A stretch of DNA of 64,000 nucleotides from Podarcis liolepis (taxonomy: Eukaryota): NCBI GenBank assembly GCA_965112155.1, contig OZ218100.1; one strand, 5' to 3'. Positions 3,090-60,702 of the stretch are shown piece after piece. The translations under genes were made by a program, and so were the position numbers. The number at the start of each line of letters is the position of its first letter. Positions within the stretch are counted from its first letter, which is position 1. The notes below the pieces were generated by a model that saw nothing but the letters and a program-made list of their open reading frames with translations, had not been told where the DNA came from and did not search any database.

Positions 3090-3683
3090 CCGTATTTTTT
3101 GCCCCATAGGACGCACTTTTTCCCCTCCAAAAATGAAGGGGAAATCTGGGTGTGTCCTATGGGGCGAATGCAGGCTTTCGCTGAAGCCTGGAGAGCGAGA
3201 GGAGTCGGTGCGCACCGACCCCTCTCGCTCTCCAGGCTTCAGGAAGCTCTGCGCAACCCTCAGGAGACCGGCTCCGAGGGTTGCGCAGAGCTGCCTGCAG
3301 TCCCCGGCTCAGCACAGCTCTGCGCGGCCATCGGGAGCGGGGCGCTAAGTCCCGCCCTGCTCCGGATAGCGGCGCAGAGCTGCCTGCAGTCCCGGGATCA
3401 GCGCAGCTCTGCGCGGCCACCGGGAGCCGGGGGCGAAGCCCCACCCCGCTCCTGATGGCGGCGCAGAGCTGCCTGCAGTCCCGGGATCAGCGCACTTCTC
3501 CCCATCGCCAGCCACACAAGCTCGGGGGACAGTGGGGAGGCAGAGCGTGCCTTCCCACTGTTCCCCGTCCTGGTTCTTCCAGCCCCGCACCTGGGGTAGA
3601 AATAATTTTTTCCCCTTTATTTCCCCCCCAAAAAACTAGGTGCGTCCTATGGGCCGGAGCGTCCTATGGGGCGCAAAATACGG
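3090..3683. mobile_element. Tc1/mariner Tc2(Kanga)-like non-autonomous element, 594 bp, CpG-rich interior
   Basis: TIRs CCGTATTTTTTGCCCCATAGGACGC / GCGTCCTATGGGGCGCAAAATACGG with TA TSDs (3088-3089, 3684-3685). Internal tandem and palindromic GC-rich repeats. Confidence 0.9.
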
Positions 3684-6084
3684 TACTTCACTTTCTTTTA
3701 TGAAGTAAAAGCTACAAGGGAAGAATGGCAAACAGAGGGGTCAGCGGCCTGAAGGAATATGGTCTGACAGGTCCAGTTGCTGTTCGTAATATTTGCATTT
3801 TGCAAAAAAGGAGGACGAACTCCCTGGTTTTGGTAGCATTTGGAAATTAAATATCAACACTATAATTTTTATTAACTAGAAAGCATCCAGTGTGAAACTA
3901 GTAGCCAGCATGGAACTACCTGAGTATACTAGCATCCCATCACTTTGGTATTTGGAGGTGACTGCATTGGGAGGAAGTGAGCATCAGAAGTGTCTCACAG
4001 TTGTCCAGCAGTTGGTATTGTTAAGTAAGGTTTTAAACTCCTATAACTCTGGCTGGAGTCACTGTAAACCAGTGGGAAGCAATGTGATCCTCGGTCTAAT
4101 TTTGTGAGACAGCTTGAGCCTAAATTTAAAAGTCTGGTAAGAGCTTTAATTTGTTCCTTTCCTGGTAGTCCACTGGATAAGAAAGGAAGAGAGAGGTAGA
4201 TAGAAGAGGAAGGTAGGAAGGTAGGAATGAAGGGAGGGAGGGAAGGAAGGAGGCAAAAAGGTGGCAGTTTTGGCTCTGGCCCTACCCATCACTAGCCTTG
4301 TCTCAACCAATAGTTACCATCTGAGCCTTGAGAGATTACTCTCAAAGGAATGTGGTCCTCACAGAAAAAAGATTACCCATCCTCGCTGTTTGCCCTGGCG
4401 CCATGTCAAATGTATCTGTCCTGTTTTAAATGAGAAGTGGCTGTTACAGAGAAGGGTTGTTCTGATTGCTAAAAAGTGGGTCTCTCTGTGATGTCAACAG
4501 ACACCTCTGGGTTAAGATATGAGCTGAACAGAATGTATGACCCATAGCTCCCAAGTAGCCATATCAACCTAGAATCAAACCAAATGTTTAAAGTAGAGCA
4601 TGTGAATCTCCTGGGTCTGTACTACAGATTGCAGCTACATGTTTTAATACATTCCCACACCCTGCCCCAAGTAAACTTGCTTTCACATAAAACAGCACCT
4701 GTGCCAGTCGTCACATGTAAAAACCTGAAGCTTGGTTTGTTTGAAAATTCCCTTTATGGCTATTTGGGGGGGTATCGGAAGCAGTGAAAGGATGTTGCTC
4801 TTGAATAAAATCCATTTCAGTATGTACTTCGGTGTACAAGTCACATAATGAAACAACTTAGACACTGACCTTTAAGGTAACTGTGTATGGAACATCTTCA
4901 TACACAGAACAAAACAAAACACATTTCAGTTTTTTATACTATCAATGAACCACAAGGATTTCATCTTTGTGAGACTGACTCAGCAGAGGAATTTTCCCAA
5001 GACAGACATACAAATGTGTTGTACAAGCTTACTGCTGTGAGATTACAAACAAGTGAACCTCAGGAGGTTTTTGCAAACTTTAAGAGACTAACTGTGGTTT
5101 ACAAAAGTAGGCTGCAATTCACTCTTTACTGTGCTTTGCACCAATATAGTCCTCCAAGGGCTATTCAATTTTTCAAAATGTTGTTGAAGGGCCTTCTGAT
5201 CATTTGTCTCCAGGAGCTAAATCAAAACTCCCCACTGGCATCCTTATGCATTCATCCAATTGTTTCCTTAACATAAAAAAACAAAAAGAGCTATGTGTTT
5301 AATTTGATATGTTCTCTCACTTTTGGGTATATTGGTTTTCTCACTGGCACTCCTGTAGCTGGGAAAAAATCTCCCGAACAGACCATGAATAGGAAATACT
5401 GCCGACTTACAAAATTAAATGAGAGGATTGGATTATGTCACTTTCTCATTTAAATTACGGGAAGAAATTCGCACTACGGAGGTGATGAATGCAATTCCAG
5501 GGGTTAGCCTGCAAACAAACATGCTTTCAAATGTGGCTGCTGGAGGTCTTCATTTGAACTTGCCATGGCCTATCCTGAACTGTAAACAGCATTGTTCAAC
5601 CTCTTTTAATTTACAGCATCAGTAGGAAGTTTGGACTAGTAGTGGCAATTCTTCCCTGTGAGGGTGGTGGGCCCATTCGGGCAGCCTGCCCTCAGAGACT
5701 GATGGAGCCTGACATGCTGCTTTCTTCACCTTGAGTGACAGTGCTGTGTATCCAAAGCTGACTAGTTAAGTAACGCTGTGAGATCATTGCCCCATGAGAT
5801 TCCTGATTGGATCAGGCAGTGGGGGAGAGAAAATGGCATGTTAAAAGCAGTTGAAGGACAGGGGAAGTGGCTATAAACAGCCATGAGAAACTGAAAAAGG
5901 CTTCCCCCCCAGGGGGTGAAACCTTTTCATCTTAAAAAATAAAACATGGGCAAAAATATGGCCTAACCCTAGGACCAATTTTAACATGCTTATACTCTGC
6001 CCATGGTAGTCTGCTGGCAGATTTAAAACAACTGAAGATCTGTCTCATAACTGCTCTTGTGGCATAGGAAGAATGACATTTATA

Positions 6085-18697: not shown

Positions 18698-20193
18698 CAG
18701 TGTTTCCCAACCTTTTTTGGGCAAAGGCACACTTGTTTCATGAAAAAAATCTCGAGGCACACCACCATGCCAGATGGGGAAAGGTTACTTTTTACTTATG
18801 TAAAAAAAAAATAAAAAAATAGTAACAGCATAGAAGGTAATGGTTATCTCTTTGATGTCTGATGGGAGGGCATTCCACAGGGCGGGCGCCACTACCGAGA
18901 AGGCCCTCTGCCTGGTTCCCTGTAACCTCACTTTTCACAGTGAGGGAATTGCCAGAAGGCCCTTGGCACTGGATCTCAGTGTCTGGGCTGAACGATGGTG
19001 GCGGAGACGCTACTTCAGGTATACTGGACCGAAACCGCTTAGGGCTTTAAAGGTCAGCACCAACACTTTGAATTGTGCTCGGAAAGGTACTGGGAGCCAA
19101 TGTAGGTCTTTCAAGACTGTCGTTACGTGGTCTCGGCGGCAGGTAGCAGCGCTCACAGCTTACGGACTGCACCGTGTAACAGGTGTCTGGCCCAGCAGCC
19201 TAAGGCGGACAAGCCACTGAAACAGGCATTCAGAATCCATTCATTTCATAAAACCTGCAGGGCTCAATCTCTGTGTTTGTGTATGTGTGTGTTTCTGTTT
19301 TGCCCAAGGGTCTGGGGGTGGGAGAGAGCTCTTTAGCATGATGCTTTTAAAACAATTAAATTATCAACAAACAAACCTGATGATACGAATAGCAACGTCA
19401 GGTGCTACCGGGGGGGGGGGAGAAGGGGGCCTACTCGGAAGTAAATACTGCGTCCAGGCGCAATTAGCGCTGATTTAAGGTGCACCAAGACTGCCTAAAA
19501 ACCTCACCAAAGATATGCAACAAAGCGCTTCGTTGCAGAGGGGAGAGTTTGTGCACCGTGGAGGCTGGAGGGCTTCTATTCTACATGCGGGGGTTGGGGG
19601 GGCGAGGAAAATGTGCTCCGTGGGGGGGGGGCGGGGAAGGCAAGAAAAGGAGCTGAGCTCTAACTATAGGCTCCCACGCTTGAGCAGGCCCGACTCGGTG
19701 GGGCGGACCACCCTCTCTCCTGGAGGAGGAGGAGGAAGAGGAGGAGGAGATTCCCATCCACGGCGTGGCCTCCCGCGCTCCTGAACGGGAAATCTCTGCA
19801 GCCCAAGACTCTCCGCGAGGCAGGTCCTCCCTTCCTGCCTTGAGCCGCCGCCAGCCGCGCCCCCCTCCCCAGTTATCTGCTGCCTGCCAAGCCCCGCCCC
19901 TCTTCATTGTCCTCCCCTTCTGTTTATTCCCCTTCCTCCATCCCTCACTTTTTTCCCTCTCTTTCCTTTTTTTTTTAAAAAAAATTCTCTTCCCCTTCTT
20001 TTTTTCCACCCTTTCTTTTTTCTCTTTCTCCCCCCCCCCTCCCCGCCCTCCTGGGTTAAAGGATTTGAGCAATGGGTCTGGAGGTGGAGCTCGTCGGAGG
20101 ATTAGCCCGACTCGCCCGCCTCCCTCCCACGGCACACTAGGCAACGTCCGGCGGCACACTAGTGTGCCGCGGAACACCGATTGGGAAACACTG
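18698..20193. mobile_element. Non-autonomous hAT element, 1,496 bp, with heterogeneous internal cargo
   Basis: Perfect 13-bp TIRs CAGTGTTTCCCAA / TTGGGAAACACTG and a perfect 8-bp TSD ccataatc (18690-18697, 20194-20201). Subterminal GGCACAC repeats at both ends. Confidence 0.9.
18832..19140 (-). mobile_element. L2 LINE ORF2 3' fragment inside the hAT element
   Basis: Closely similar to the L2 copy at ~48940-49120 (ctgatgggagggcattccacagggc...ggccctctgcctggttccctgta). It lacks the L2 terminal repeat tail. Confidence 0.85.
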
Positions 20194-23141
20194 CCATAAT
20201 CTGCACACTGAATCAAACAACAGGTAGTTACTTAAGGAATGCACCTGGCCTCTCAAGAGATGAAGAAAGTGCTTTAATAACCTATTCCAGGCCCATAGGG
20301 AGGGAGAACCTAGTGGTTGTATATAAATGCAGATGGACAACATGGCACCCAGGCCCCAGAAAACACCAACATGCTCACAGTGAGTGAAGTCAGCATAAGC
20401 AAGGAGCAGGTCTCCCGATTTCAAGCAAAAAAATATTGGGTTTTGGAAAAGAACTAGAAGATACTGCTAACATAAGCCTCCAAGGCCTTGGATGTAGGCA
20501 GAAGAAATTCAGCTGTTAAAAAGGAAACATGGCATAATGGAATAATAGACTCCCACAGCAAATAGCAAAGCTGCAGATCCTAAAGACAGAAATTTTCTGG
20601 ACCCCCACTACCTCACTCTGGCTGCTTCGTAGCCCAGTGAACTCCAGTTCAAAAATACCCACCTTTCTATTTGACTAAGTGCTCATCCACATCTCCATTT
20701 GTCCCATGTTTCCTTCCATTTGTCTTGTGATTTCTGGCTCAGGTCCAAGAGGATTTTCTTTTGTCTCGCTGCTTTTCCTGGGAAGAGCCACTGTTTACTA
20801 CTGTCTAGCCGCAGAAAACCCGATGGAAATCATGGGACAATTCAAACCAAAAAACTGCAACAACACTGTTTATCGGTCTCTTCCATTTAAACTTTCCAAA
20901 AGCAGGGAAGAGAGATCTCCAGCCATTATCCCCCATTCAAGGAACATCAGGAAATCAATGTGGCGCCTCGGCACACATGATGCATGGAAACATCCAAAGT
21001 CTGTAAGAGGACTGGATACTAAACAGAACTTTAAAAAATAATAAACAAATTTTAATATTGTTTTATTTGTCTTTCCTGCCACACACACATATATGCACAA
21101 TAAAATAATGACCAGAGCTATTGTCAAAAGTATCACTAGTACTTAAATGAGTTATTCCAGCATCCCAGCATCAAGGAGGACCAAAATAACAAACAAACTA
21201 CACTTCCCTTAGGGTCAAACTTCCTTTGTCCCTAATGTAAATGTTAGCCAGATTAGATTAGGAGCTCTCTTTAAAAAACCACTTGCCTCCCATGGGTTTT
21301 CTATCAGTATTTTGCTGCTGATAAGCACTTCAATATCTTTCATTTGTAAATGAGGGACATCTGATGGTGCTTTGCGATATGAGATTTCTATCTAGACTAT
21401 GTACATTCACTGACCAATGAAAGGCACTTCCTATAGACTTAATGTTCCTGATATCATATCGTACAATCTGAATTAAGAAAAGGATTACCACTGTACAATG
21501 TGAATTGTACAACATCAATGATTTATTTTAAATGAGACTAATTAGACATTTCTGTGAAGATATGTAAGCTTGCCAGCAGCTTCAAATGATCCTTTGGGAA
21601 CCTGAAAAAAGAATACCCTTGTTAAAGGCTGAGGCACTAATGCCTACTGGGTAATTTTTATTTGTTCTCTACAGAATTCCCTCTTCCTTTCATTGACAAA
21701 TGCTTACAATTCCCTTTGCCCCCTTGGCAGCTGATGTGAATGGTTTGTCAAATGGAGTGAAATGAGTAGGCCAGGCAGAAAATAGAAAGACCAATGACAG
21801 GAAAAATCAGCAGCCAGAGTCATATGGTGCAAATTGTATAAAAACAGAGTGTGCTCTACAAGGAATTTCTCCAAAATTGCTAGTTGCCTTATGTAGAAGC
21901 TGCAGTGCAAATGACAGATTTAAGTATTTTGGTCTCAAAATGTTTATATTGTGGATTCTTAGCTTGAGATGTACAGCATGGTGCTATAATCTCACAAGAT
22001 ATCTGTAATTTCCTGGTTTGGTACCAACAAAGTAACAAAACGTGGGCATCAAACGTGAGAATGTTGTTTTCCAGGCAGTAATGGACTACCATAAATTACT
22101 TTGCTTGATCAGAGGACCTCTATCCTATGTGAAAGCTGATAAATTCAAGCCAGCTTTCGTGAGTGCCTCATCACTGCTCAATAGAGATGAGCCACACAGA
22201 AATTTTCTATTCTGCTGAGAATCTATACCCAGTACAGCCAAGATTTTCATGAGACAGTTACGTACAATAAAATTCTGCAGTATGTATCTTTTCAAAAAGA
22301 AAATTTGCTTTAAACTGCATCTGATTTCCCCCACTCAATTAATAAAACCCTTCTAACTGTGGTTGGTTAAAACTAGCCAGCATCAAAACATGTTTGAGAG
22401 TCATCTAACCACTTCTAGAACCATAATTCCCCAAACCTATTTAAATGTTGTGGGCAATCATAGATACTGTGTCCCCAGCCATCAATGTACATCCAGGGAC
22501 ATTTGTGGGACAATTTACATCCAGGGACATCTAGTGCACAGTACTGTGTGAGCTAATTCTAAAGAGTATTCAACTAGTTTTGGAGTTTGAATCACATTTG
22601 GATCCACTCAGGATAGGCTTTCATTAATGAGCACTCACACTTTACACTGCGGGTGCCCTTTGCGGAATCGCGCGCGGTGCTACAGTTCCCAGGGAGCTTA
22701 CTGGCAAACAGGGGCTGGCTTGCCTCTCAGTGTTAATTTTTGGAGGTTCACGCTCAGCCTCAGTAATCAGGTTTCTTGCTGGGAGGTGGGGACAGCCCTA
22801 TTTATAAATAGGGGGTGGAGTCGACAATAGCCAGGCAGTCGGCTCTGGAGATTCACCCTCCCTACCACCCCCCTTTATTTAATGTTTCTTGTTTGCAGGT
22901 TAACTTTTTCTTCCTGTTTAGCAGGCGTTGCTACGGTCTTTGACTGGTTGCTGTTGAAGGACCGAGAAATTTTCCTGCATTGGCAGGTTTTGTCTTCCCC
23001 ATAGCAATTCATCACAACTGTGGCGGTTATGGCCTTGGGTGGAATCCTTTAGTCTTTTCTTGCCTTTTGGAGGGGCATGAAGTCGTGACTCACCCCCCTG
23101 TGGAGGCAATTCTAGGGTCCCCCTCTTAAAGGGGTTATATA

Positions 23142-23298
23142 CAGTGGTACCTCGGGTTAAGAACTTAATTCGTTCTGGATGTCCATTCTTAACCTGAAAC
23201 TGTTCTTAACCTGAAGCACCACTTTAGCTAATGGGGCCTCCCGCCGCCACCGTGCTGCCGCCACACAATTTCTGTTCTCATCCTGAAGCAAAGTTCTT
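23142..23298 (-). mobile_element. Tigger-like MITE (same family as 330-571), inverted, interrupted and truncated
   Basis: TA + CAGTGGTACCTCGGGTTAAG TIR; reverse complement of the 3' part of 330-571. It resumes only briefly at 25661-25681, and the second TIR is missing. Confidence 0.88.
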
Positions 23299-23329
23299 TT
23301 TTTAAAAAAATATTTTTTATTAGCTGACC

Positions 23330-23369
23330 AATCAAATCAAATCAAATCAAATCAAATCAAATCAAATCA
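23330..23369. repeat. (AATCA)n pentanucleotide microsatellite in the retroposon 3' end
   Basis: Direct reading. Copy 2 has only ~caaatcaaacaaa at the matching position. Confidence 0.93.
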
Positions 23370-23385
23370 CATAAATTCCGAATTA

Positions 23386-24618
23386 CCATAATTTTCGCTC
23401 CAAAACACACACTTTTTTGCTCCTAGAAAGTAAGGGAAAATGCCTGTGCGTGTTACGGAGCGAATGCACGGATTGGAGCCATGGCTGCCGTCAGTCAAGC
23501 AAAGTGGGAGCCGCTTACACGCTCTACAAGGCTCTCACTTTGCTTGCTTTAAAGCGACCTGGAGCAGGGGAGGGAAGGAGAGCCATGGCAGCAAAGCCGG
23601 CAGCAGCCGCTTACACGGGAGGAGGGACAGACGCTAAGCAAAAGTCCGCACGCTCTCTAAACAGAGCAATGAGGCTGCAGAGGGACTGCAGGAAAGATAA
23701 AATTAAAGCAACCAGCAGCAAAATAAAACCAACCTCGAGCTCTGAGCCAGCGCAGTGAAAACCAGGAAGTAAAAAAAAAAGGCTGGGGAGGGCATGAGGG
23801 AGAGGGGAAAACTTCGCAAATCCCTGCGTCTCAGCTGATCGGCTGGGACGGAGCAGCTTGTTTTCAGGCAGGATAGATTTGAGCATTGTCTGGGTCCTAG
23901 TGCCCCTACCACTTTTTTGTGCTCCATTCTATTGCTGCTGGTGGCTGCTTATCGTTCAGCATGCAAGGAGGAGCGCTTTTACACAGCTAATGGCGAATCC
24001 CCTGCAATCCAAGTCCTCCTCACTTGCTCAAATCTATTCTGCCTCAAAACAAGGAGCGGAAGGAAAAGGCTGCAAACTGTTAAATGGAAAAAAACCCCAG
24101 GCACAGGGCAAATACCTTAAGTATACCTTTAAAGCAACAGTGCTCTTTTCCTCTCTCCTCCCCACTCAGCTCGCGGAAAAGCTCCTTCTCCACACCCCCC
24201 ACGCGTGCTCCTTGTCCCTTGAGTTCTTTTCCTTCCCTCCCCACTTAAAATGTGGTTACAAAGCACGGATCCACATGGATCCTCAGGATTTTTGCACTGG
24301 GTCACCCCAAATTCACCATCAGATCACATAGCATTTCCATGGCTACAGCATGCACCAAAAAACACACCCACACCCACTGTTTCATGGGGCCGCAATGGCG
24401 CAAAAACGTGGTTACAAAGCATGGATGCACATGGATCCTCAGGATTTTTGCATTGAGCTACCCCAAACTCACTGTCAGATCACATGTCTGTGGCCACAGC
24501 ATGAACCATAAAAATCATACATCCACTGTTTCGTTTAGAATATTTTTTCCTTGTTTTCCTCCTCTAAAAACTACGTGCGTGTTATGGTCAGATGTGTGTT
24601 ATAGAGCAAAAAATACGG
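23386..24618. mobile_element. Tc2(Kanga)-like non-autonomous element, 1,233 bp, nested in the retroposon
   Basis: TIRs CCATAATTTTCGCTCCAAAACACACAC / GTGTGTTATAGAGCAAAAAATACGG with TA TSDs (23384-23385, 24619-24620). The empty site (aattacacagccgaatttt) is visible in copy 2 at ~27170. Internal ~156-bp-period duplication at 24252-24485. Confidence 0.9.
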
Positions 24619-27116
24619 TACAAAGCCAAATTTTAAATTTTTGTTGAGGGGACCCATATTTCAAGTTCCGAAGGGGGATTCCGATCATCTTCTTGCTACT
24701 GCGTTAATATCCAAATCAGTCCAAATAATGTTCATAATTCTATCCAGTGTTATCTTGCTGTTTCCACATCTCATCTTGTTCGTATATTTTTTCTTTTTTT
24801 CTTAATGATCTGATAATCTCCTTAAGCAGATAAACACCAATTAAAATCCTGTGTGAATTTTTCCGTTTGTCCAATCCTCATATCAAGATGGTTTCCATAT
24901 ATCATCGCTTTCATAAATAACATCGCTCTTTCAATCATTAATCTCGCAAATCTGTCGCTCTTAAGTCCCTCTGAGGAGTCTCACCCACAATATAAAAACA
25001 GCTCTGTTCCTCCTCCCAGACTTAATTCCTCCAACAGAACTTGCCAACATGGCGACGGTATTTTTAACTGTGTCATTCCAAAGCTCTTATACTTTCCACG
25101 ATCTTCTTGAAACATGCTTTGGTTAGGAAATTATCTCCACACAGTCATAAATCCACAGCTTAAGTCATTAAAATGGCATTTCTGACTGGGGGGGGGGATT
25201 CTTGGTTAATCACATAGAGGAAAGAAAGGAAAGTTTTCCCCCCTCCCCCATCCACTCCCTTTGCCATACCGAGCCTTGGTGATCTTCTCATGATTTATTC
25301 TTATTTCTCCGACCCGTCTTGTTTATCAGAGATCTCTTCAGTTAGCAGTCTTTACTCCCCCTCCTTCCTTGAAATATGTGCATTCACTTCCTCCTAATTG
25401 TTTCTTTTGAAGTTGTTGCAGCTAGAGGCGCGGATCAGAGACAGCGTCCAGGAGCATGGAGATCCACAGGAGGGCTTTCTGCCTAGTGCCCCCATCCCCA
25501 CAAATTCGGGGGTGGTGTAGGGTACAGCAGGCAAGGGCAGCCCCCCCAACTTTGGGGGGGGTAGGGAGGCTATTTACTCCCATCACAGCCTCCTAATTAC
25601 CTCGTGTGGGTCGGAGAGATGTTATTGTCAGCCATCTTCCGATGAGCCCCTAGTGGCCCCTCCTGAAGCAAAGTTCTTAACAAAGTCCTATCGCCAGCTG
25701 GTTACACAAAAGCCACCCCTCTGAATTATATCACCAGCAGGTTTTTTTAAGACCAGAAACATTGAAAGCCATGATAGGTGTGCACAAGTCATTTGAAACA
25801 CTCAAAGTGACATTCTGGATAATAGCCCAAGTCTGTTTTGAATTTAAGGTAAGTTTAAAACACATTACACAGAAAGAAAATTAGCAATCCATTTTAAATG
25901 GTGTGAACTTGTATTCTGTTAAGAACTTATCATATTGAGAATTCATTATGAATCTGAAAAACTTTCCTAGCTTTCCCTTACTTTCACATGTACTGAGAAA
26001 GAGATGGATGTGTCTGAATCTAAGCTCCATGTGTTACAACTTGCTCATCTACTTTACTGTTATAATTTTAAAACTTGGTAGGTTCAATTTTTATTTTTCC
26101 ACCAAAGTTCTTCTGAGATCCTGTAGTTTCCATGGTACAAAAGACAAACACAGCATAATTGCATGGTTATTTACATGAACAAGTAGGCATGCTTGCAAAT
26201 GTAATTGTTCAGCATTTAATGTGTATTCCTGAGAGTGAGAAGTAAAAAGGTGCATCCACCATTTTCATCACTTTGTTTTTCTTTTTCCAAAATGCACTCT
26301 TTTTCTATGTTAATTTTTTTTGTAACTGAAAACGTTTTCAGGAAAAAAAGATCCACATATTGTTAACCTTATGGGTAAAAGCACAATTTTCTTTCATGTA
26401 GCCCATCACAATTAGTATTCTGAACCCATTTTTTTCTTTCTCCCATGATTAAATAGCAATAAATACAAATTGCCATGCTATGTTTGCAACAAATTTAAAT
26501 CTGAGTAAGAGCCACAGTTTTTATTTCATTTTTAAATTTTTGGAGAGTCACCATAAAGCAGTTCATGTCTTACTTCCCTTTTTCTTCTTGGATTGACCTT
26601 AAAAGAGCTTTTCTGACAATCAATTCAAAAAATATACAGCTGTTCTTATTCCACATAATAATCATTTCTCTTTTAAATGTTATCTGAAACTGATTTTATC
26701 TGATGCTTTGCTTTTATACCTGTTGTGTTTTAACTTTTTTCATTTTACTGTTGATTGTTTGGACTTAATTTTTACTGCTTAGCCACCCTGATAGCATTCA
26801 TTTTTAAGGCTAGAACATAAATCTTTTAATATAAAACTCCTTCAGTTTCCCAGATACTACATTTCCCTGCCCGTAAACCAACTATTTCCCCATTGATTAG
26901 GGATAGTCCCATGGTCTGACAGCACCTTTTCCATCTCCCCTGTTCATGAGACTTTTGTTTGGCTTATATTCCACACTCTTTGGGGCCTACCTCGCAGAAA
27001 CGGCAGATGGAGATAAAACTGTAAAACTTTGGACTATAGTTTAGAACGCACAAGTACAAATATAAAAGCATTTCTCTGCACATACAAAACTGGTATACAA
27101 TGCCAAGCAATAGTTA

Positions 27117-28240
27117 ATTTTTATTAACCGATCAATCACGTCAAATCAAACAAAATTACATAAATTCCAAATTACACAGCCGAATTTTAAATTTTTGTTG
27201 GGGGTACCCATATTTCAAATTCCGAAGGGGATCCAATCAACTTCTTGCTTCTTGCTGCTGTTTTAATGTCCACAAATCTAACCATATGATGTTCACAGTA
27301 CTGTCCAGTCCTTTCTTATCGTTTTTCCACATCTTTTGTTGTTATTTTCATATGTTTTTCCTTTCTCTTTGTGACCTCTGATAGTTCCACAAGCTGGTTA
27401 AAACAGTTTGTAATCCTGCGTGGATATTATTTTTTTTATCCAGTAGCCATATCCAGACGTTTTCCATATAACATCACTTCCATACATCAAAACAGTCTTA
27501 GCGTCATTAATCTTCACCAATCTGCCTCCTTTCTCAAAACCTCTGAGGAGATTCACCAGGAATGCAGTCTGAAAACAAGTCCGTTCCTCCTCCCGGCTAT
27601 AAATCCTTTAGCAAGATGGCGACTCTGAATTAATTGCTGCGCCATTCCAAAAGCTCTTATTGCTTCTCGATCTCCATAAAGCATACTTTTGGTTAAAGTT
27701 TATCTCCACACAGACCTTAATCATCCTGCTTGGGTCAGTGCAACCGACAGTTCTAATGAGGAGGGGTTCTTAGTAAATCACATAAAAGGAAAGTAAAAAA
27801 GGTCTCCCCCCCCATTCAGTCCCGTTGCCGACATACCCAGCCTTTGGTGTATCTTCATCGTAAAATATTCCTGTTTCTCCAACCCGTCGTCTTCTTTCGC
27901 AGAGGTCACTTAAATTAGCAGACTTCACTCCCCTTCTTCACTTGAAATATGTGCATTTGCTTCTTTTGTAATTAATTATTCCAAAATGCTGCAGCTAGTT
28001 CGTGATCAGAGACAGTGTCCAGGAGAGCCGAGGTCCACACGGGAGCATTCTGCCTAGTGCCCTCACCCCCTTCTTTCGAATTTGTGGGTGATTTATGGGC
28101 ACAGCAGACAAGGGCAGTGTTCCCCATTCCCTTGGGGCAACAAGGGAGGCTGCCTACTCCCATAACAGCCTCTTAATTACCCCGTGTGGGCCAGAGAGAT
28201 GGTATCGTCGGCCATCTTCCAATGCGCCCCTAGTGGCCCC
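27117..28240 (-). mobile_element. Non-coding L1-dependent retroposon, copy 2 (1,124 bp)
   Basis: TSD caatagtta (27108-27116, 28241-28249). 5' end GGGGCCACTAGGGGCGCATTGGAAGATGGCCGAC, AATAAA at the 3' end (27120-27125). No long ORF. Confidence 0.85.
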
Positions 28241-28896
28241 CAATAGTTAGTGATTCTTTATACTACTCAAATACTTATCTATTGCTTGTAACAATAACAT
28301 TCAAATACTTGTATCTTTTTCTTGGTATTTGTTTGGACTCCATGGTACACTGGCATATAATTTACTATCTCCTAACCTTTATAGGAATTGTAACTCTCAT
28401 TTTATATCTTTATCAGGAATACAGCCATTGGTGAATGTGTATTCCATACTTAAAAGAAATCCATTTGTTGTAGCTGACCTTCTATAGCAGTGTTTACACA
28501 TTATATATTCCTATGTTATTGCTTTGCTCATGTTTCTCTAATGCAGTTCAGTCTCCTTTCTATGTATACTGTGTTTGGTTGTGCCCTCCTATCACCTTTA
28601 CGTTAGCTACAAATCTGAATTACAGTTTCCTTCTGCCCAGAGTCCTTGAGGATCTCAGGAAAGAACAGCCACATAGTGTTAGGAACAAGTTTTTAAAACA
28701 AGATGAAAATTCACAATCCCACAGGGAATTAATCTCTACATACATTATCACTATATTATGAATTACTTACATTACTGTTGCTCTGTCCCATTATCTTTCA
28801 TAATAAATAAAAACATTTCCTAAATTTAGGAAATGAAGGGCTGTATGGGTGACCTCTATGATTTGGATAATCACCACTGTGTACATTTCTGCACTA

Positions 28897-29591: not shown

Positions 29592-29842
29592 AAGGTCACC
29601 AGTTCAAATCCACGCAACAGGGTCCTAGCTCCTGCCAACCTAGCAGTTTGAAAGCATACCAGTGCAAGTAGATAAAGAGGTACCACTGCAGTGGAAAGAA
29701 GCAGTCATGCTGGCCACCTGATCTGGAAAAGCTGTCTGCGGACAAATGCCAGCTCCCTCAGCCTGAAAGTGGAGATTAGTGCAGCACCCCATAATCAAAT
29801 TCGACTGGACTTAACCGTCCGGGGGTCCTTTACCTTTACCTT
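29592..29842 (+). mobile_element. Sauria SINE, 5'-truncated
   Basis: ctcctgccaacctagcagtttgaaagca...gtgcaagtagataaa...gtcatgctggccac...ggggtcctttacctttacctt (ACCTTT tail). Confidence 0.88.
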
Positions 29843-35404: not shown

Positions 35405-36767
35405 CAAGCCTGTCTTGTCTTTTCTTTTCTTGGGTGATTATAGTTAAGGTGAGCTGAGAATACGTAGCAGGGGTGCTGGTCTATTCCTCTTTCAGCCTCA
35501 CAACAACACTTCAAAGCAAGTTAGGCTGTGACTGGCACATCACCCAGTGTGTGAACTTCATGAGTAAATTAAGATTTGAGCTGAGTATCCCCAGTCCTAA
35601 TCAGACACTCTTAATTCAGTTTCCCCTGAGTGTTTTGGACTACAACTTCCATCATCCATGACCAATGGTCATGGTAATATCCGATGGTAATATCATATTA
35701 ATATCATATGGGAGGAAGCTGCTCTAATCAATACACCATATTGACAATCTTCTAAAGATTAGTGTGTGGATTCATGCTGCAGGCTTAGATAATTGGTGCT
35801 TTAAGCTGTTACCTACTTTGCCACTAGAGTAACAACACTTCAAGGCACGCTAAAAAATCTCACAACAGAATTCCTGTTTGTTTTAAAAGATGACATTTTG
35901 ATTTCATTTACTGTGTGGACTGCTAAAAATTTATAGTGTGTTTGCCTGGAAACATTAAAGGAGGGAGATAAAGGAGGATGATTTAGAAAGTTTTTGTTAC
36001 CGAAAAGCAGCAATGCGGGAGCGAGCTGCAGGTGGCTGGAATGCAAAACAGGATGTTGATGTTTGGGACTGTACCATGGGAACAAAGGGGCAGTCTATTC
36101 ACTGTACTGAGCACCGGATGTTAGCTCAGAGTGTCATCTGACCTGTACAGGAAGTACAGGGGTGGAGTTAATCTCTCTGCTGTTGGAGTCTGAAGAGTGC
36201 AGACGCGTTTCTCTGTACTGCTGCAAGGACAGAAATAAAAACATGTAAATACATTTCTGTCTGTCTCTTTCCCCTCCCTGGGGGAGGCAGGGAGGAGGGA
36301 AGAGTGGTGTGTTCTTCTCACGCTTGAGGAGGAGAGACAGAGAGGGGGAGGTCAACAAGGAGCTTAAGCTGAGTGCCTGGAGAGTGACCGGTTTTCCTCT
36401 GATAAGGCTTAAGAATCCAACAGTTTTGAACCACTCCTTATGTACGGCCTTCCAAATTGTTGTGCTACCCACAGGAGTTTAGGACTGGGCACACCACTGT
36501 ATTAGTACAAAGATGCAAAAAAATTGTGAAGTATGTATTTTAATTTTCCTGTGTTTTATTGATTTCCAGATGTAACAGAACAAAGGAAACAACAATATTA
36601 CCAACCAAAGACTTTGGTTTTAAGGAAAAAATATGTAATGCTTAGAAGTGCATTTCTACTATATCAGTAGCTCAAGATCATGACTAAATAAACACGTGTG
36701 CCTTTAATGCCCTACTTTAAAACTTTCCAAGACCAAGGGGTCCACTTCTCCCAAGAGAAAAAAAAGC

Positions 36768-37126
36768 TAAAGGACCCCAGGATGGTTAAGTCCAGTCAAA
36801 GGTGACTATGGCTTTGCAGAGCTCGTCTCGCTTTCAGGCTGAGGGAGACGGCGTTTGTCTATGGACAGTTTTCCGGGTCATGTGACCAGCATGACTAAAC
36901 TGCTTCTGGTGCAACGGAACACCAGAGTACATGGAAACGTCATTTATCTTCCAGCTGCAGCGGTACCAATTTATCTACTTGCACTGGTGTGCTTTTGAAC
37001 TGCTAGGTTGGCAGGAGCTGGGACAGAGGAATGGGAGCTCACTCCGTTGCAGAGATGCGAACTGCTGACCTTCTGATCGGCAAGCCCCAAAGCTCAGTGA
37101 TTTATACCATAGCGCCTCCTGTGTCT
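36768..37126 (-). mobile_element. Sauria SINE, near full length
   Basis: Reverse complement matches the head and body at 1-136 and 29592-29842. Confidence 0.9.
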
Positions 37127-46666: not shown

Positions 46667-47987
46667 CTGCAAAGGAGAAAAAAAAATGTGCTGCTTTATC
46701 AGCATTTAAACATTTCGAACATACCTTCCACTAATTTATCCAGGTAACCAGGGGCTGAAAAACCACCTTGCTGCATATGAGTGGTAAAGAGTTTCTGAGC
46801 CCATCACAAGTAGGATTTGGAGTTCAGAGATATCCCTTTTTGCCTCTTTCCTGCTAGCTGTGCAGTTTCTGTTTCTGCAGCAGTCCAGAAGCTTTTGCTT
46901 CTTTCTTAGATGAACCATTGCTTGCTGCAGGCTCTGTTCGCACATGAGAAGTCAAACCATGGCTTACTGCAAACACACAAAAGTGCAGGCTCCCACAGTT
47001 CCCTGATGCTGTGTTCCTTCTCAGTTCTTTTAGCTCAGCGGCACTGCATGGAAACCAAGCCAAAGTGTGTTGTCTGAACATAGGATCATTGTGAAGCTCT
47101 TTCCTCTGTTACTAATACCTGTAATCAAGGTTTAGCTTACTGCGCTGTGCAAACTGGGACATGTAGTCCAAACCTGGAAAAACTGTGGTTAATCTTAACT
47201 ATGGTTAGCTGAAACTACCCAGCTCTCACCCATAGTTTATGAAGCTGGTTTATTTCAACTAACCACAGTTTTGGGTTCAGATGACATGCTAAACTACAGT
47301 TAATCTAAAGTAAGTGAAAGTAGAAGCTTCTGATTCCCTCTTTATGGCCACAACGAAGCAGAAGAGGGAGCTCATAGTTTAGAATTATATCAGAACACAG
47401 CCATGCTATTCCTCTTGAACAGAAAGGCTGATAATCACAGCTACCCCAGCTCTGCAATGCCTCCCATGCTTTGACAGAGCAGAAAGGGTATGGTTAAAGG
47501 TGGGGAGATAGTGTAAGTCTATCTCAAACACATCTGAAAGTCTGCGCCACACATGCTGCAGCTAAAGAGCTGCCAAAATTTCTGTTATCATTCTGCACCT
47601 GAAGTAAAAAGCTTCCAGTGTGATATAAAGGGCATTGCTGTTTTGTTTTTTTAATTTTCATGTACAAACAATACTTTAAAAAATAATCAAATCTGCTTTT
47701 GTAAGTTATAAGCAAGAAAATTGATTTACTGGGTTTGATTTGGAGGGAAAGTTGTATTTTGTCAGGGAATTTGACGTTTTCTACTGGCTCAGTATAGAAA
47801 TCATGCCAAATAATTAAACTATTACTGTATTGCACTGTCAAGGTTTTTTTTAAAAAAATTGTGCTACCCAAGGCAACTAAACAGGTGCATCTGAAAAGAG
47901 AAGATCCTGCTAAATGCATTCACAGGTTTTACTCTCAAGTGACCAAGCTGTCTCCTGCCTTTGAATCTGAAGTATGTTTTCAAGGTA

Positions 47988-48229
47988 CAGTGGTACCTCG
48001 GGTTACAGACGCTTCAGGTTACAGATGCTTCAGGTTACAGACTCTGCTAACCTAGAAATAGTACCTCGGGTTAAGAACTTTGCTTCAGGATGAGAACAGA
48101 AATCCTGCTCCGGCGGCGCGGCAGCAGCAGGAGGCCCCATTAGCTAAAGTGGTACCTCAGGTTAAGAACAGTTTCAGGTTAAGAACAGACCTCCGGAACA
48201 AATTAAGTTCTTAACTTGAGGTACCACTG
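47988..48229 (+). mobile_element. Tigger-like MITE, 242 bp (same family as 330-571)
   Basis: TIRs CAGTGGTACCTCGGGTTA / TAACTTGAGGTACCACTG with TA TSDs (47986-47987, 48230-48231). Confidence 0.93.
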
Positions 48230-48744
48230 TACCTCTTTTTCATTTTGGTCCCTTTTAATTCCTCCCCGCCCCCGCCCAAATATTATGTAGTCTTGTCTGA
48301 ACCAGCGTATCACTGTAAGAAACAGCTGTACTGTTGTGAAATAAGCTACTTTCAAACGGGTTGAATAATTCACGCTTTCAATCATACCTCCTTGCCTTAA
48401 AGGGGCATTAAATAATAATTTTTGAGACTGATTGTTCAAAAACAGTCCCATGTAAGCATGTACAGCATGGCAGTTGTTTTTTATTTATTTGTTTGTTTGT
48501 TCATCATCATCATCATTCCCCCTTTTCCTCTGGTGGGATTCAAGGTGGCTTACAAATAAAAATAAGAACTGCTGAAAACAGAGACAGGAAATTATTTACA
48601 ATTGGCACATAACAGTAACAGTGGTACAGCTTTGTTAGCAACATAATTATACATAGACACATACATCCTAATCTAGTATCTCTTAGGTTGTTCTCCAAAA
48701 GAGGCGGGCAGGTCAGCCCCTATCTGCTTGGGTTCCAACAGCCT

Positions 48745-48797: not shown

Positions 48798-49120
48798 TTA
48801 TTTATACCCCTCCCATCTGCCTGGGTTTCCCTAGCCACTCTGGGAGGCTCCCAACCGAATATTAAAAACACAATACAGCATTAAACATTTAAAACATCCC
48901 TAAACAGGGCTGCCTTCAGATGTCTTTTAAAAGTAAGATAATTGCTTATTGCCTTGACATCTGATGGGAGGGCATTCCACAGGGCAGGCGCCACTACCAA
49001 GTAGGCCCTCTGCCTGGTTCCCTGTACCCTCACTTCTTGGAGTGAGGGAACAGTCAGAAGGCCCTCAGAGCTGGACCTCAGTGTCCGTGCTGAACGATGG
49101 GGGTGGAGATGCTCCTTGAA
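48749..49120 (-). mobile_element. L2 LINE, 5'-truncated 3' end; its repeat tail reads (AAT)n on the plus strand
   Basis: ORF 48881..49174 (...RTLRSSSEGLL...RAYLVVAPALWNALPSDVK...TFKRHLKAALF) is the L2 ORF2 C-terminus. (AAT)n at 48749-48796. Confidence 0.9.
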
Positions 49121-56604: not shown

Positions 56605-56712
56605 CAGTGATGGCCAAACTTGGCTCTCCTGGTGTTTTGGGACTACAATTCCCATCATCCCTGACCACTGGTTCTGTTAGCTAGTGATGATGGGAGTTGT
56701 AGTCCCAAAAAT
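56605..56712. mobile_element. Palindromic hAT MITE, truncated
   Basis: ttttgggactacaattcccatcatc...gatgatgggagttgtagtcccaaaa hairpin. Same family as 59198-59332. Confidence 0.8.
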
Positions 56713-58830: not shown

Positions 58831-59197
58831 GTTATTGTTGCCTTCAATCTTTGTAATACTATGATCACTTCCTAATGTGGCAGTGGGGACTTTTCAACCT
58901 GAGGGCCATATTCCTTGTGAGCACCTTTCCAGGATCCACATCCCAGGGGTGGTTAAGTGGGTAAGGACAGGGATAAAAGTGCACACAGGAGTAAACACAA
59001 CTCTGGCCTTTGTAGAGTAGGCTACGTTACTGCCACACCAAAGTCAGTGGTTTCTACAATCACACATGTTGTATCTCTCCATCCTGCAAGCAAGAGGCAT
59101 GGCCACATTTTAAGGACACATTCCAGCCAGATACAAGCACCCAAGGAGGGTACAGAGCAGAGCTGGTGATGGGTTTGGCTTAGGGAAAGTCCTAAGA

Positions 59198-59332
59198 CAG
59201 CAAAGGCAAACTCGGCCCTTCAGATGTTTTGGGACTACAACTCCTATCATCCCTAGCTAACAGGACCAGTAGTCAGGGATGATGGGAGTTGTAGCCCCAA
59301 AACATCTGGAGGGCCAAGTTTGCCTATGCCTG
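59198..59332. mobile_element. Palindromic hAT-Charlie-type MITE, 135 bp, nested in an older hAT remnant (~58880-59399)
   Basis: Long internal inverted repeat and a perfect 8-bp TSD tcctaaga (59190-59197, 59333-59340). Confidence 0.9.
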
Positions 59333-60702
59333 TCCTAAGAGCTAGACAGAGAATTCTGGAGGGCCACCTTAGTCACTGGGCCTGAGGTTTCCCACCCTGT
59401 TCTAATGGATAGGACCTGTACAACTATTAGATTTTGTTGGACTACAACTTCCATCATTGGACATGTTGATTGTGGTTGATGGGAAATGTAGCCTAACAAT
59501 ATCTGGAGAGTACCACATTGGCTACCTTTGACTTTAGCCCTTCTTTGCTGCCTGGAAGCCACCATAGAGCTTCTGTTACTGCAGGTGACTTCTGGACCAC
59601 TTCTCTTCTGCTCAGCATTCTGCTCTCTGACTGTTGACACTGCTAGACAGCTCCTCACCTTTCTCTGATAGGAATACTTCTCCTTCACTACAGAAATCAC
59701 AGTCTTGGGTTCTACAAGCCGTGTAATTTATATTTACTAAATCTGGTTGAACATTGCTGTTTGCATCACGAGGCTGAATGCACAACAGACTTAGAAAACA
59801 AAGTAATATCAAACAGGATTTTATTATATTTTTAAACTACAGGAGTATCTGTAACCATCTTCCTCTAGTCCATATCCTCTATTTATTGGCACTTTGTCCA
59901 TAAATATTGCAGTGGAAACCTCATGGCATGAATAAGGGTGAAAGGCTTTTTGCACGGTTGGCATACTAGATATTTAGCACAATCAACCCAGTTCATGAAA
60001 GGATTTTTCTTCATCATCTTTTATTCAAAAAGTAGTTGGAATTTCCAAAGCAAGCTCTGCTCTTGGATTTCTACCTTCATGCTGACACTGGTGTTTGATG
60101 ATTATCGGCCCTTTTCAGAAAGCAAGAGCGAGGTCAGGAGTTTTCAGCATGTGGTGAAGAACAATCCTAAGAGGGGAAGTTGTCTTCTAAAAAAAACAAC
60201 AACCAACTGTAGCTGAATAAAAGTCATCATGGAGCAAAAACAGCTGTCTAAGAATTCTGTTTCCAACTTACTGGAGGTTACAATGACTGCTAGAATGAAC
60301 AGGTAAAAGGCAAAAAGGACAATCATTTTTGAAAGAGCAATGAAACTGAAGTAGGATGCTTTTTAACCAAATAGCCTACAGAAAAATAATGTCTGGCCTC
60401 AGGTTAAAGTGATTTGGAGAAGGAGAAAAATATTTAATCACCTCTCCAAACTCTGTTTTCAGCTGGAAAATCAAAGCATTTGTGAGCTCTATTAGCTTAC
60501 TATCACCAGAAACATTATTGTTGGCAGGAGGTGGCAAACAGCAGGAATAAGCTCCAGACCTCTAAAGTAGGTTTTGAGGTTGCTTTGGGTCCTAGATCCA
60601 AACTCCTTAGCCAAAACTCAAAAGACACATTTATTATGGGACGTAATAAGTGATTTTCAGTGATCCAAAAGCAGCAATGTTCACAGTTGCTACTTCATTT
60701 TG

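Follow-up and report, generated by a model that had tools for sequence, protein, structure and literature searches.

An ORF-less, dispersed retroposon superfamily with L1-type insertion signatures and a predicted 5′ RNA fold in the lizard Podarcis liolepis

Introduction

L1 proteins prefer their own RNA. SVA is a non-coding, polyadenylated element that L1 mobilises in trans, with target-site duplications (TSDs). The L1 partners that we found described in the literature are pol III SINEs, composite SVA-type elements and the ORF1-coding HAL1; an ORF-less derivative of L1 was not among them. HAL1 derives from L1, has an A-tail and, being non-autonomous, is moved by L1 (available parts of PMC5753468 and PMC5786205). 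A second group, the ORF-less bipartite LINEs (RIME/Ingi, NARTc, Vingi derivatives, Bov-A, RTESINE and WALLSI3), have LINE-like ends, are presumed to be transcribed by pol II and are mobilised in trans (PMC5786205, available text). The donors named there are only RTE, Ingi, Vingi and R2, and the available portion of this 2018 survey records no ORF-less derivative of L1, leaving open why only some LINE clades yield such elements. L1 also makes processed pseudogenes, which are non-coding, polyadenylated and flanked by TSDs (PMC3747384, in part). Lizards carry further non-autonomous retroposons in the form of tRNA SINEs, such as Squam3 (PMC7983390, in part) and Sauria SINE, AnolisSINE2 and SINE2-1_Acar (PMC3747384, in part).

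Here, we describe an ORF-less retroposon superfamily, 1.1–1.24 kb in length, that is dispersed in the genome of Podarcis liolepis. It comprises about 11 nested lineages that are 50–90% alike, several of which have many low-divergence copies and shared diagnostic changes. Two copies lie in a 64,000-nucleotide stretch of DNA, hereafter the window. A sequence-only reading of the window had taken them for a non-coding, full-length-inserting parasite of a lizard L1. That the retroposon is dispersed and non-coding, that most of its copies are full length and that they were inserted in the L1 manner is supported by copy number, TSDs, target sites and tails.

Results

Two copies in the window

The two window copies, here called copy A and copy B after their lineages, have the following parts:

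27117..28240, minus strand: lineage-A copy, 1,124 bp, 5′ end full length, A-tail missing; 3.1% from the lineage-A consensus
28241..28249, minus strand: 5′ TSD of copy A, 9 bp, paired with 27108-27116; probably what is left of a longer TSD, given the family median of 18 bp
27108..27116, minus strand: 3′ TSD of copy A
28208..28240, minus strand: head, with G-run, CCACTAGGGG and the YY1-type motif AAGATGGC (28208-28218); the most conserved part
28006..28240, minus strand: predicted structured 5′ RNA domain, ~235 nt, a long closing stem enclosing three hairpins
28146-28172, minus strand: hairpin a of copy A, with the conserved loop AUGGGAGUA
28119-28141, minus strand: hairpin b of copy A
27231..28005, minus strand: A-rich body (35% A), non-coding, with many frame-breaking indels between lineages and no ORF1/ORF2 relic
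27612-27623: antisense YY1-like CGCCATCTT in the body of copy A
27117..27230, minus strand: 3′ block of ~110 nt, conserved at 0.79-0.83 between lineages, with AATAAA at its end and without a stable fold
23299..25660, minus strand: lineage-B copy, 1,127 bp without its insert
25435-25660, minus strand: 5′ domain of copy B
23299-23306, minus strand: short A-tail of copy B
25661..25678, minus strand: 5′ TSD of copy B, 18 bp, target TT/AAGAA, partner at 23281-23298
23281..23298, minus strand: 3′ TSD of copy B
23386..24620, no strand assigned: TIR element of 1.23 kb, with TA duplication, nested in the 3′ block of copy B and foreign to the retroposon

Much of what had been claimed for this pair from the letters alone is borne out. 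The copies are colinear on the minus strand (71.6% identity over 1,095 columns, E 5e-137; 1,124 and 1,127 bp), and the gap between them, put at ~1.5 kb, is 1,457 bp. Both begin with GGGGCCACTAGGGGC (28226-28240 and 25646-25660), so that the shared first base stands, as do the TSDs of 9 bp (28241-28249/27108-27116) and 18 bp (25661-25678/23281-23298) and the YY1-type motif near the 5′ end, AAGATGGCCGA at 28208-28218. The absence of a long ORF also holds, with no stop-free frame above 113 aa in the lineage-A consensus or above 83 aa in lineage B. AATAAA followed by an A-rich tail had been assigned to both copies; copy B does carry this tail (23299-23306), whereas copy A has no real A-tail. It stops at AATAAAAAT, and most of the 29 other top lineage-A copies extend with ATTATTCTT(A)n. 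Because the usual family end is thus missing from copy A, a small deletion probably cut an originally longer TSD down to the present 9 bp. The insert in copy B, previously called a MITE, is instead the 1.23-kb TIR element with its TA duplication.

Copy B and several other copies (window 23139-23298; L018, L024, L083, L102, L125 and L151) are nested in an abundant TACAGTGGTACCTC-ended DNA-transposon family. Insertions into this family are often at AAGAAC, which may mean that the transposon is simply abundant or that L1 favours this target. The window also has repeats of other kinds (1-128, 29622-29837, 36763-37119; 321-574, 47979-48231; 56615-56710, 59190-59340; 18834-19015, 48935-49117; 3181-3690): SINE-like copies, TIR-bounded short elements, a 180-bp pair and, within a TIR element, an 89-bp tandem.

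Family size and dispersal

When copy A was used as query against its own 1.57-Gb genome, 1,538 candidates were found; the best 40, a set ranked by score and hence biased to full length, were all full length and, apart from copy A itself, 94–95% identical. With copy B there were 1,294 candidates, the best-scoring ones at 89–95%. All 40 scored places were full length with flanks that differ, which rules out a local duplication as the origin of the window pair. Exact motif matches genome-wide numbered 66 for the head, 171 for the 3′ block and 388 for a 29-nt hairpin a motif, and reversed-pattern controls gave 0 each. The overlap of the head and 3′-block match sets (21/66; 5/30), taken from counts plus six coordinate pairs, implies roughly 400–550 young-lineage copies, which is a floor.

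Clustering of 86 distinct full-length copies, from which 12 duplicate or shared-flank loci had been left out, gave nine groups 12–32% apart, five of them single-copy at that stage. Four loci on contig C20 (L096, L099, L101 and L107) are one insertion quadruplicated together with its flanks. Much of the set of top L1 matches, often broken ones, also lies on this contig, as might be seen on a repeat-accumulating sex chromosome. Two further loci have unusual structures: L126 (G000:C1:130.386 Mb) has the first ~20 nt of the head duplicated in tandem, and L159/L160 (G000:C4:16.568-16.580 Mb) is a young copy that a nested insertion of 10.8 kb interrupts, with a duplication of 13 nt. Of the sampled sequence words, 43–68% are present in 20 public data sets, which stem from 10 studies and carry 6 organism labels; none of these sets is listed as RNA.

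Insertion signatures

TSDs were found in 105 of 120 distinct copies (9–24 bp, median 18). Base −1 of the target is a pyrimidine in 85 of the 105, and purines occupy positions +1 to +4 in 87, 93, 88 and 80 of them (Y/RRRR). Among copies picked by a 3′ motif (n=30), 22 are full length (73%) and 8 are 5′-truncated, 5 of these 8 with a TSD. Extra 5′ bases, 1–6 in number and mostly G, are present in 75 of 99 full-length copies with a TSD; they may come from cap copying or from variable starts within the G-run. Resident L1s have TSDs of 12–25 bp, found in 15 of 20, and share with the retroposon the layout AATAAA, 8–15 nt, A-tail. Many intact L1 ORF2s of ~1,255 aa are present in the genome. The scars are the signature of L1 target-primed reverse transcription. 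It is very probable that L1 mobilises the retroposon in trans, a dependence that we infer from this insertion signature. Solo LTRs have TG...CA ends and a fixed 4–6-bp TSD, and that identity is ruled out by the G-run start, the A-tail end and TSDs of 9–24 bp.

Coding capacity and sequence conservation

Each of the four consensus sequences (A, B, O and H) is free of stop-free frames above 113 aa, and indels between lineages disrupt the frame throughout. ORF1 and ORF2 profiles gave nothing on the retroposon, with ORF1 scores of at most 4.3 bits from a profile built on clade-1-type ORF1s only and of limited sensitivity. An ORF2 C-terminal relic was considered and rejected (best 2.1 bits). ARAGORN predicted 0 tRNAs, and Rfam gave no match near the gathering score, only chance matches, in line with the earlier view that the element is distinct from tRNA SINEs. 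The Rfam search, being without a match, likewise led us to reject an HDV-type ribozyme or IRES. T runs of 4–6 occur inside the retroposon sequence; internal T runs of such length would stop pol III.

Mean pairwise identity among nine lineage sequences is 0.94 in the first 50 columns and 0.88 in the next, 0.83/0.79 in the 3′ block and 0.45–0.81 in the middle. A 12-codon ORF from the ATG of the YY1 motif is kept in 8 of the 9 sequences that represent the young lineages. We do not accept it as a gene; it lies within the most conserved block, and the lineage O head does not have it. A 3′ stem-loop is not supported either (z +2.3 to +2.5 for the 3′ block).

A predicted 5′ RNA fold

The sequence-only reading overlooked a conserved 5′ RNA fold. 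Over the first 235 columns the predicted fold has z of −3.7 to −4.1 against dinucleotide shuffles, and, as judged by covariation, it spans positions ~50–220 as a closing stem with three hairpins. Among 19 young copies, the 43 pairs are 97.4% kept, with double changes in 10 of 43. When 16 copies drawn from the young, H and O lineages were aligned by sequence only, the three hairpins were 94.6% paired and 8 of 21 pairs showed double changes; of 500 shuffles of this alignment, none reached the covariation score and 37 reached the count of double-changed pairs. A further alignment has double changes in 21 of 43 pairs, having itself been fitted to the model, and all these counts are drawn from related sequences and so are not probabilities. 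A covariance model from young copies detects lineage O copies at E ~1e-15, and the hairpin a loop AUGGGAGUA is nearly invariant. On this modelling, the first ~230 nt have a predicted fold that is kept, with compensatory changes, across lineages 50–65% alike.

The 5′ ends of resident clade-1 L1s (L062-L080, L212-L251, first 240 nt) were also folded. They often form a hairpin series, with z of −0.3 to −5.5, whose stems are apparently kept between families despite sequence change.

Lineages O and H and the link to L1

Resident L1s start with (G)GACTTCCGG. The YY1 head of the window copies had been called L1-type, and this is apt relative to mammalian L1 but does not extend to the resident L1s: 0 of 66 exact head matches lead into an L1. 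All 66 are family members, 42 of 42 fetched continuing into the body and the other 24 coinciding with known copies. A fifth-G head variant, CCACTAGGGGGCGC (window 28226-28240, minus strand, and lineage A), occurs directly upstream of the YY1 motif in 9 of 39 lineage-A copies and, by its letters, resembles the CTCF core motif. Anole clade-1 L1s start with GACTTCCGGTGN8ATGGCG and mammalian L1s with a G-run and CAAGATGGC (PMC5381506, in part). By its letters, the young G-run/YY1 head follows the mammalian and not the lizard L1 pattern.

Lineage O, an older sister lineage, was recognised through a weak match beside one young copy. This match belongs to the older copy that hosts the young one; the host copy is 1,099 nt long and has a TSD of 17 bp. 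There are 466 candidates and 46 matches for this lineage; 16 aligned copies are 6–18% from the consensus, 13 of 29 loci having been left out of the alignment as partial or interrupted. O is 64–67% identical to the young lineages in pairwise comparison (z 7.6–12.5) and about 50% in the multiple alignment. It starts with GGACTTCCGGTTTGGCTTGCCATGGCG, and its first 22 bases agree with the L062-type L1 start at 20 of 22 positions, as against 11–19 for the other 15 L1 starts and 5–11 of 22 when the young head is set against the L1 starts compared. At the other end, O and H finish in GGAAAACTTAATAAA, likewise L076, and L061 and L062 share this motif except for its first base; the tail motif GAAAACTTAATAAA is common to O, H and these three L1s. 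On the question raised earlier, whether the ends match those of an autonomous L1, the lineage O head (20/22) and the shared tail motif agree with resident L1s, and nothing internal matches in the 75 LINE loci sampled. An L1 derivation of the retroposon's ends is likely, on evidence that consists of ~22 nt at one end, 10 of which belong to a core common to nearly all resident L1s compared, and ~15–19 A/T-rich nt at the other.

Lineage H (867 candidates; 1.18–1.24 kb; 8 copies 4–8% from the consensus) has an intermediate head, GGGGCTCCGCTAGGGGCGCCA(C/T)GGAAGATGGC, with an O-like hairpin and tail, and its position in the tree is intermediate between O and the young lineages. H, at 4–8% from its consensus, is not clearly older than lineage B (3–7.5%). 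The head appears to have shifted stepwise from the L1 form to the YY1 form via H, in a direction that depends on rooting at O. Because resident L1s start with GACTTCCGG and H bridges the gap between the O head and the G-run/YY1 form, the latter, mammal-like as it is, is probably the derived state. A more diverged O-type copy, L189 (G000:C3:83.74 Mb; ~72% to O), is broken by large insertions, a CR1-like LINE among them.

Search for a parent L1

The L1s used for comparison came from 75 LINE loci gathered in four protein searches; several are of the same family, some are CR1-like and one is repeated, and they represent a sample of the L1 families. Among these 75 EN/RT loci, blastn, nhmmer, two covariance models and a protein search found no parent L1 for the fold or body beyond the termini. 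The genome search scores top candidates only, and its reach therefore excludes rare or decayed families; the covariance-model blanks are soft because model R1 missed the old L189 copy that R2 detected. Pfam PF02994 and PF17490 gave no genome match, an uninformative blank given that 7 of 7 resident ORF1s tested escape Pfam as well.

Compared by eye, the 5′ domain and anole clade-2 L1 5′UTRs have several motifs in the same order, namely GCGCAT, CTCTCC-N9/10-AGGYAATTAA and, before a stem, CATAAATC (available part of the PMC5381506 supplement; motifs chosen post hoc). The second and third also follow one another in anole L1_AC17, and the third is in AC18, again by eye and in the same partial source. 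In shuffled 240-mers, the chance of the shared motifs was 0/20,000 and 0.0016, for motifs picked after the fact. Searches with the anole clade-2 5′ end and spacer motifs gave 10, 1 and 2 matches, none of them an L1. A likeness of the body to the anole clade-2 spacer was set aside as weak and by eye, its best block being in lineage B only. The donor cues conflict, in that the by-eye motifs point to anole clade 2 and the O head to clade 1. The 75 loci also include a young intact L1 lineage, L246/L247 (G000:C3:124.67 Mb and C1:17.59 Mb), with an ORF2 of 1,287 aa that is only ~30% identical to other resident L1s, a 375-aa ORF1, a ~700-nt C/A-rich spacer, a GACTTCC start and at least 5 copies.

Transcription

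In two bulk paired libraries from a related organism, first mates map to the body predominantly on the minus strand (depth about 4–63 versus 0–14), while the flanking repeats are covered on both strands; single-cell libraries have both strands on the retroposon. If the usual stranded protocol applies, the body RNA is the sense strand. The 5′ G-run, which the sequence-only reading had singled out as the place to look for RNA starts, shows no start cluster, and reads often enter from the flanks. Those crossing the 5′ end often run into unrelated flanks (13 in X23, 26 in X24 and 37 in X22), and because of this the sense bias may come from copies within host transcripts. No splice-like joints were seen in the retroposon RNA reads. 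A diverged relative of the 3′ block (L006:2508-2601; runs X15, X23 and X24) is far more abundant than the rest, with a summed contig depth of ~1,100–1,800 in X15; it has consistent unlike flanks and is possibly an old copy in a highly expressed transcript. The retroposon probably renews itself from an internal promoter, presumably a pol II one.

Discussion

The reading that we favour, with some reserve, is that of a pol II, ORF-less retroposon that has L1-derived ends and a predicted 5′ fold and is copied in trans by L1. On this reading, transcription would begin in the G-run, driven by an internal pol II promoter within the first ~100 nt, and each full-length copy, carrying its own promoter, could found a new lineage. 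The RNA would be polyadenylated at AATAAA, taken by resident L1 ORF2p through its A-tail and inserted by target-primed reverse transcription. The ancestor would have had the L1 GACTTCCGG...ATGGCG head and the GAAAACTTAATAAA end, still present in O, and its head would have drifted via H to the G-run/YY1 form. By analogy, one might guess that the predicted 5′ domain is an inherited L1 5′UTR module that aids access to translating L1 ribonucleoproteins; the Alu domain performs such targeting for Alu. Mammalian L1 RNA recognition is described as 'relaxed' in the available text of PMC3747384, and mammals and lizards may differ.

A bolder version of this account, which we consider doubtful, would be that an L1 lost both ORFs long ago and persisted, after its parent family was gone, as a 1.1-kb structured non-coding RNA with a pol II promoter of its own. 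It would have radiated into coexisting lineages, much like lizard L1s, and acquired the mammal-like G-run/YY1 head independently, with the fold capturing ORF2p in trans as a pol II counterpart of the Alu domain. L1 would then be a fifth LINE clade with ORF-less derivatives.

The element might instead be composite, a structured non-coding RNA of host or other origin that L1 moved and that gained an L1 head in lineage O by template switching, and hence not a deletion derivative of L1. Such an origin, which we hold to be rather unlikely, would fit the lack of an L1 homologue of the fold or body in the 75 LINE loci and the confinement of the L1 match to the extreme ends, and template switching by an anole LINE is documented for U6 (PMC4476161, in part). 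It sits less well with the L1 likeness of both O ends and with H as a graded intermediate in head and tail; in addition, the ordered 5′-domain motifs recur by eye in anole L1_AC17 and AC18 (PMC5381506 supplement, in part), and no Rfam family matches. A decayed HAL1, in which a 5′UTR, an ORF1 and a 3′ end were kept and ORF1 eroded past recognition, has some appeal on proportions: the 230-nt 5′ domain, ~800-nt A-rich body and ~110-nt 3′ block are near those of anole clade-2 L1s, with a 5′UTR of 229, ORF1 of 762–1,125 and 3′UTR of 125 nt (PMC5381506 table 2, in part). With no frame above 113 aa in A, B, O or H, an ORF1 profile score of no more than 4.3 bits (clade-1-type profile) and frame-breaking indels, we find it improbable.

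Two readings that change the source or the mover seem to us more remote. An A-tail, AATAAA, extra 5′ Gs and L1-type TSDs also mark processed pseudogenes, and RNA reads are present, so that the copies might be processed, dead-on-arrival products of one or a few host lncRNA genes; about 11 nested lineages with dispersed low-divergence copies would need many source genes, however, and the RNA reads are without splice-like joints. We hold this to be very unlikely; for a source locus split by introns, the genome search covered its 40 top-scoring places. Nor do we give much credit, for all that several LINE clades are active in squamate genomes (PMC6050309, in part) and that LINEs with stringent recognition have a conserved 3′ block as seen here, to a mover other than L1 (Tx1, RTE, Vingi, CR1 or L2) or to a long pol III SINE. 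TSD length, the Y/RRRR target and the AATAAA-(8–15 nt)-A-tail layout all match resident L1s, while the 3′ block is unfolded (z +2.3 to +2.5), a tRNA head is absent and T runs of 4–6 lie inside the element.

If the favoured reading of a trans-copied, pol II retroposon with L1-derived ends is right, the retroposon is a pol II case of long standing whose RNA domain covaries, and it makes it testable how a capped non-coding RNA competes for ORF2p, and whether a non-mammalian L1 5′UTR acts as structured RNA and not as promoter DNA alone. The series from O through H to the young lineages presents a change of promoter head (GACTTCCGG to G-run/YY1) inside one genome. Clean insertion markers should also be obtainable from the family, given its long TSDs and its share of 73% full-length copies.

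Comparison with known systems

In the open full-text literature we found no description of an ORF-less, L1-derived retroposon of this kind in lizards; Dfam and Repbase entries lie outside this comparison, and de novo repeat libraries probably hold the element as an unclassified repeat. SVA differs in its make-up, since no VNTR, Alu or ERV parts were seen in the retroposon. The processed pseudogenes made by L1 (PMC3747384, in part) are alike in being non-coding, polyadenylated and flanked by TSDs, whereas the retroposon is a probably self-renewing family with conserved ends. The squamate tRNA SINEs, which it resembles as a non-autonomous lizard retroposon, have tRNA/pol III heads and L2, Bov-B or Vingi partners (PMC7983390 and PMC3747384, in part), and Squam3 is only 218–239 nt long with rare TSDs (PMC7983390, in part).

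With HAL1 it has in common the A-tail and, very probably, mobilisation by L1, but HAL1 encodes ORF1p (PMC5753468 and PMC5786205, in part) and the retroposon has neither an ORF nor a detectable ORF1 relic. With the ORF-less bipartite LINEs it shares the lack of an ORF and, if the favoured reading holds, LINE-like ends, pol II transcription and mobilisation in trans. According to the available text of PMC5786205 they align with their parent LINE; the retroposon does so only at its extreme ends, and in its oldest lineages. At 1.1–1.24 kb, it is further set apart by its split into lineages 50–65% alike. Lizard L1 5′UTRs show no significant alignment to it beyond the termini among resident L1s, and the young head, a G-run with AAGATGGC, is mammalian-like. 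Even so, the lizard clade-1 L1 start resembles the O head, and the clade-2 UTR, in its length of 229 nt and its ordered motifs, resembles the 5′ domain (PMC5381506, in part).
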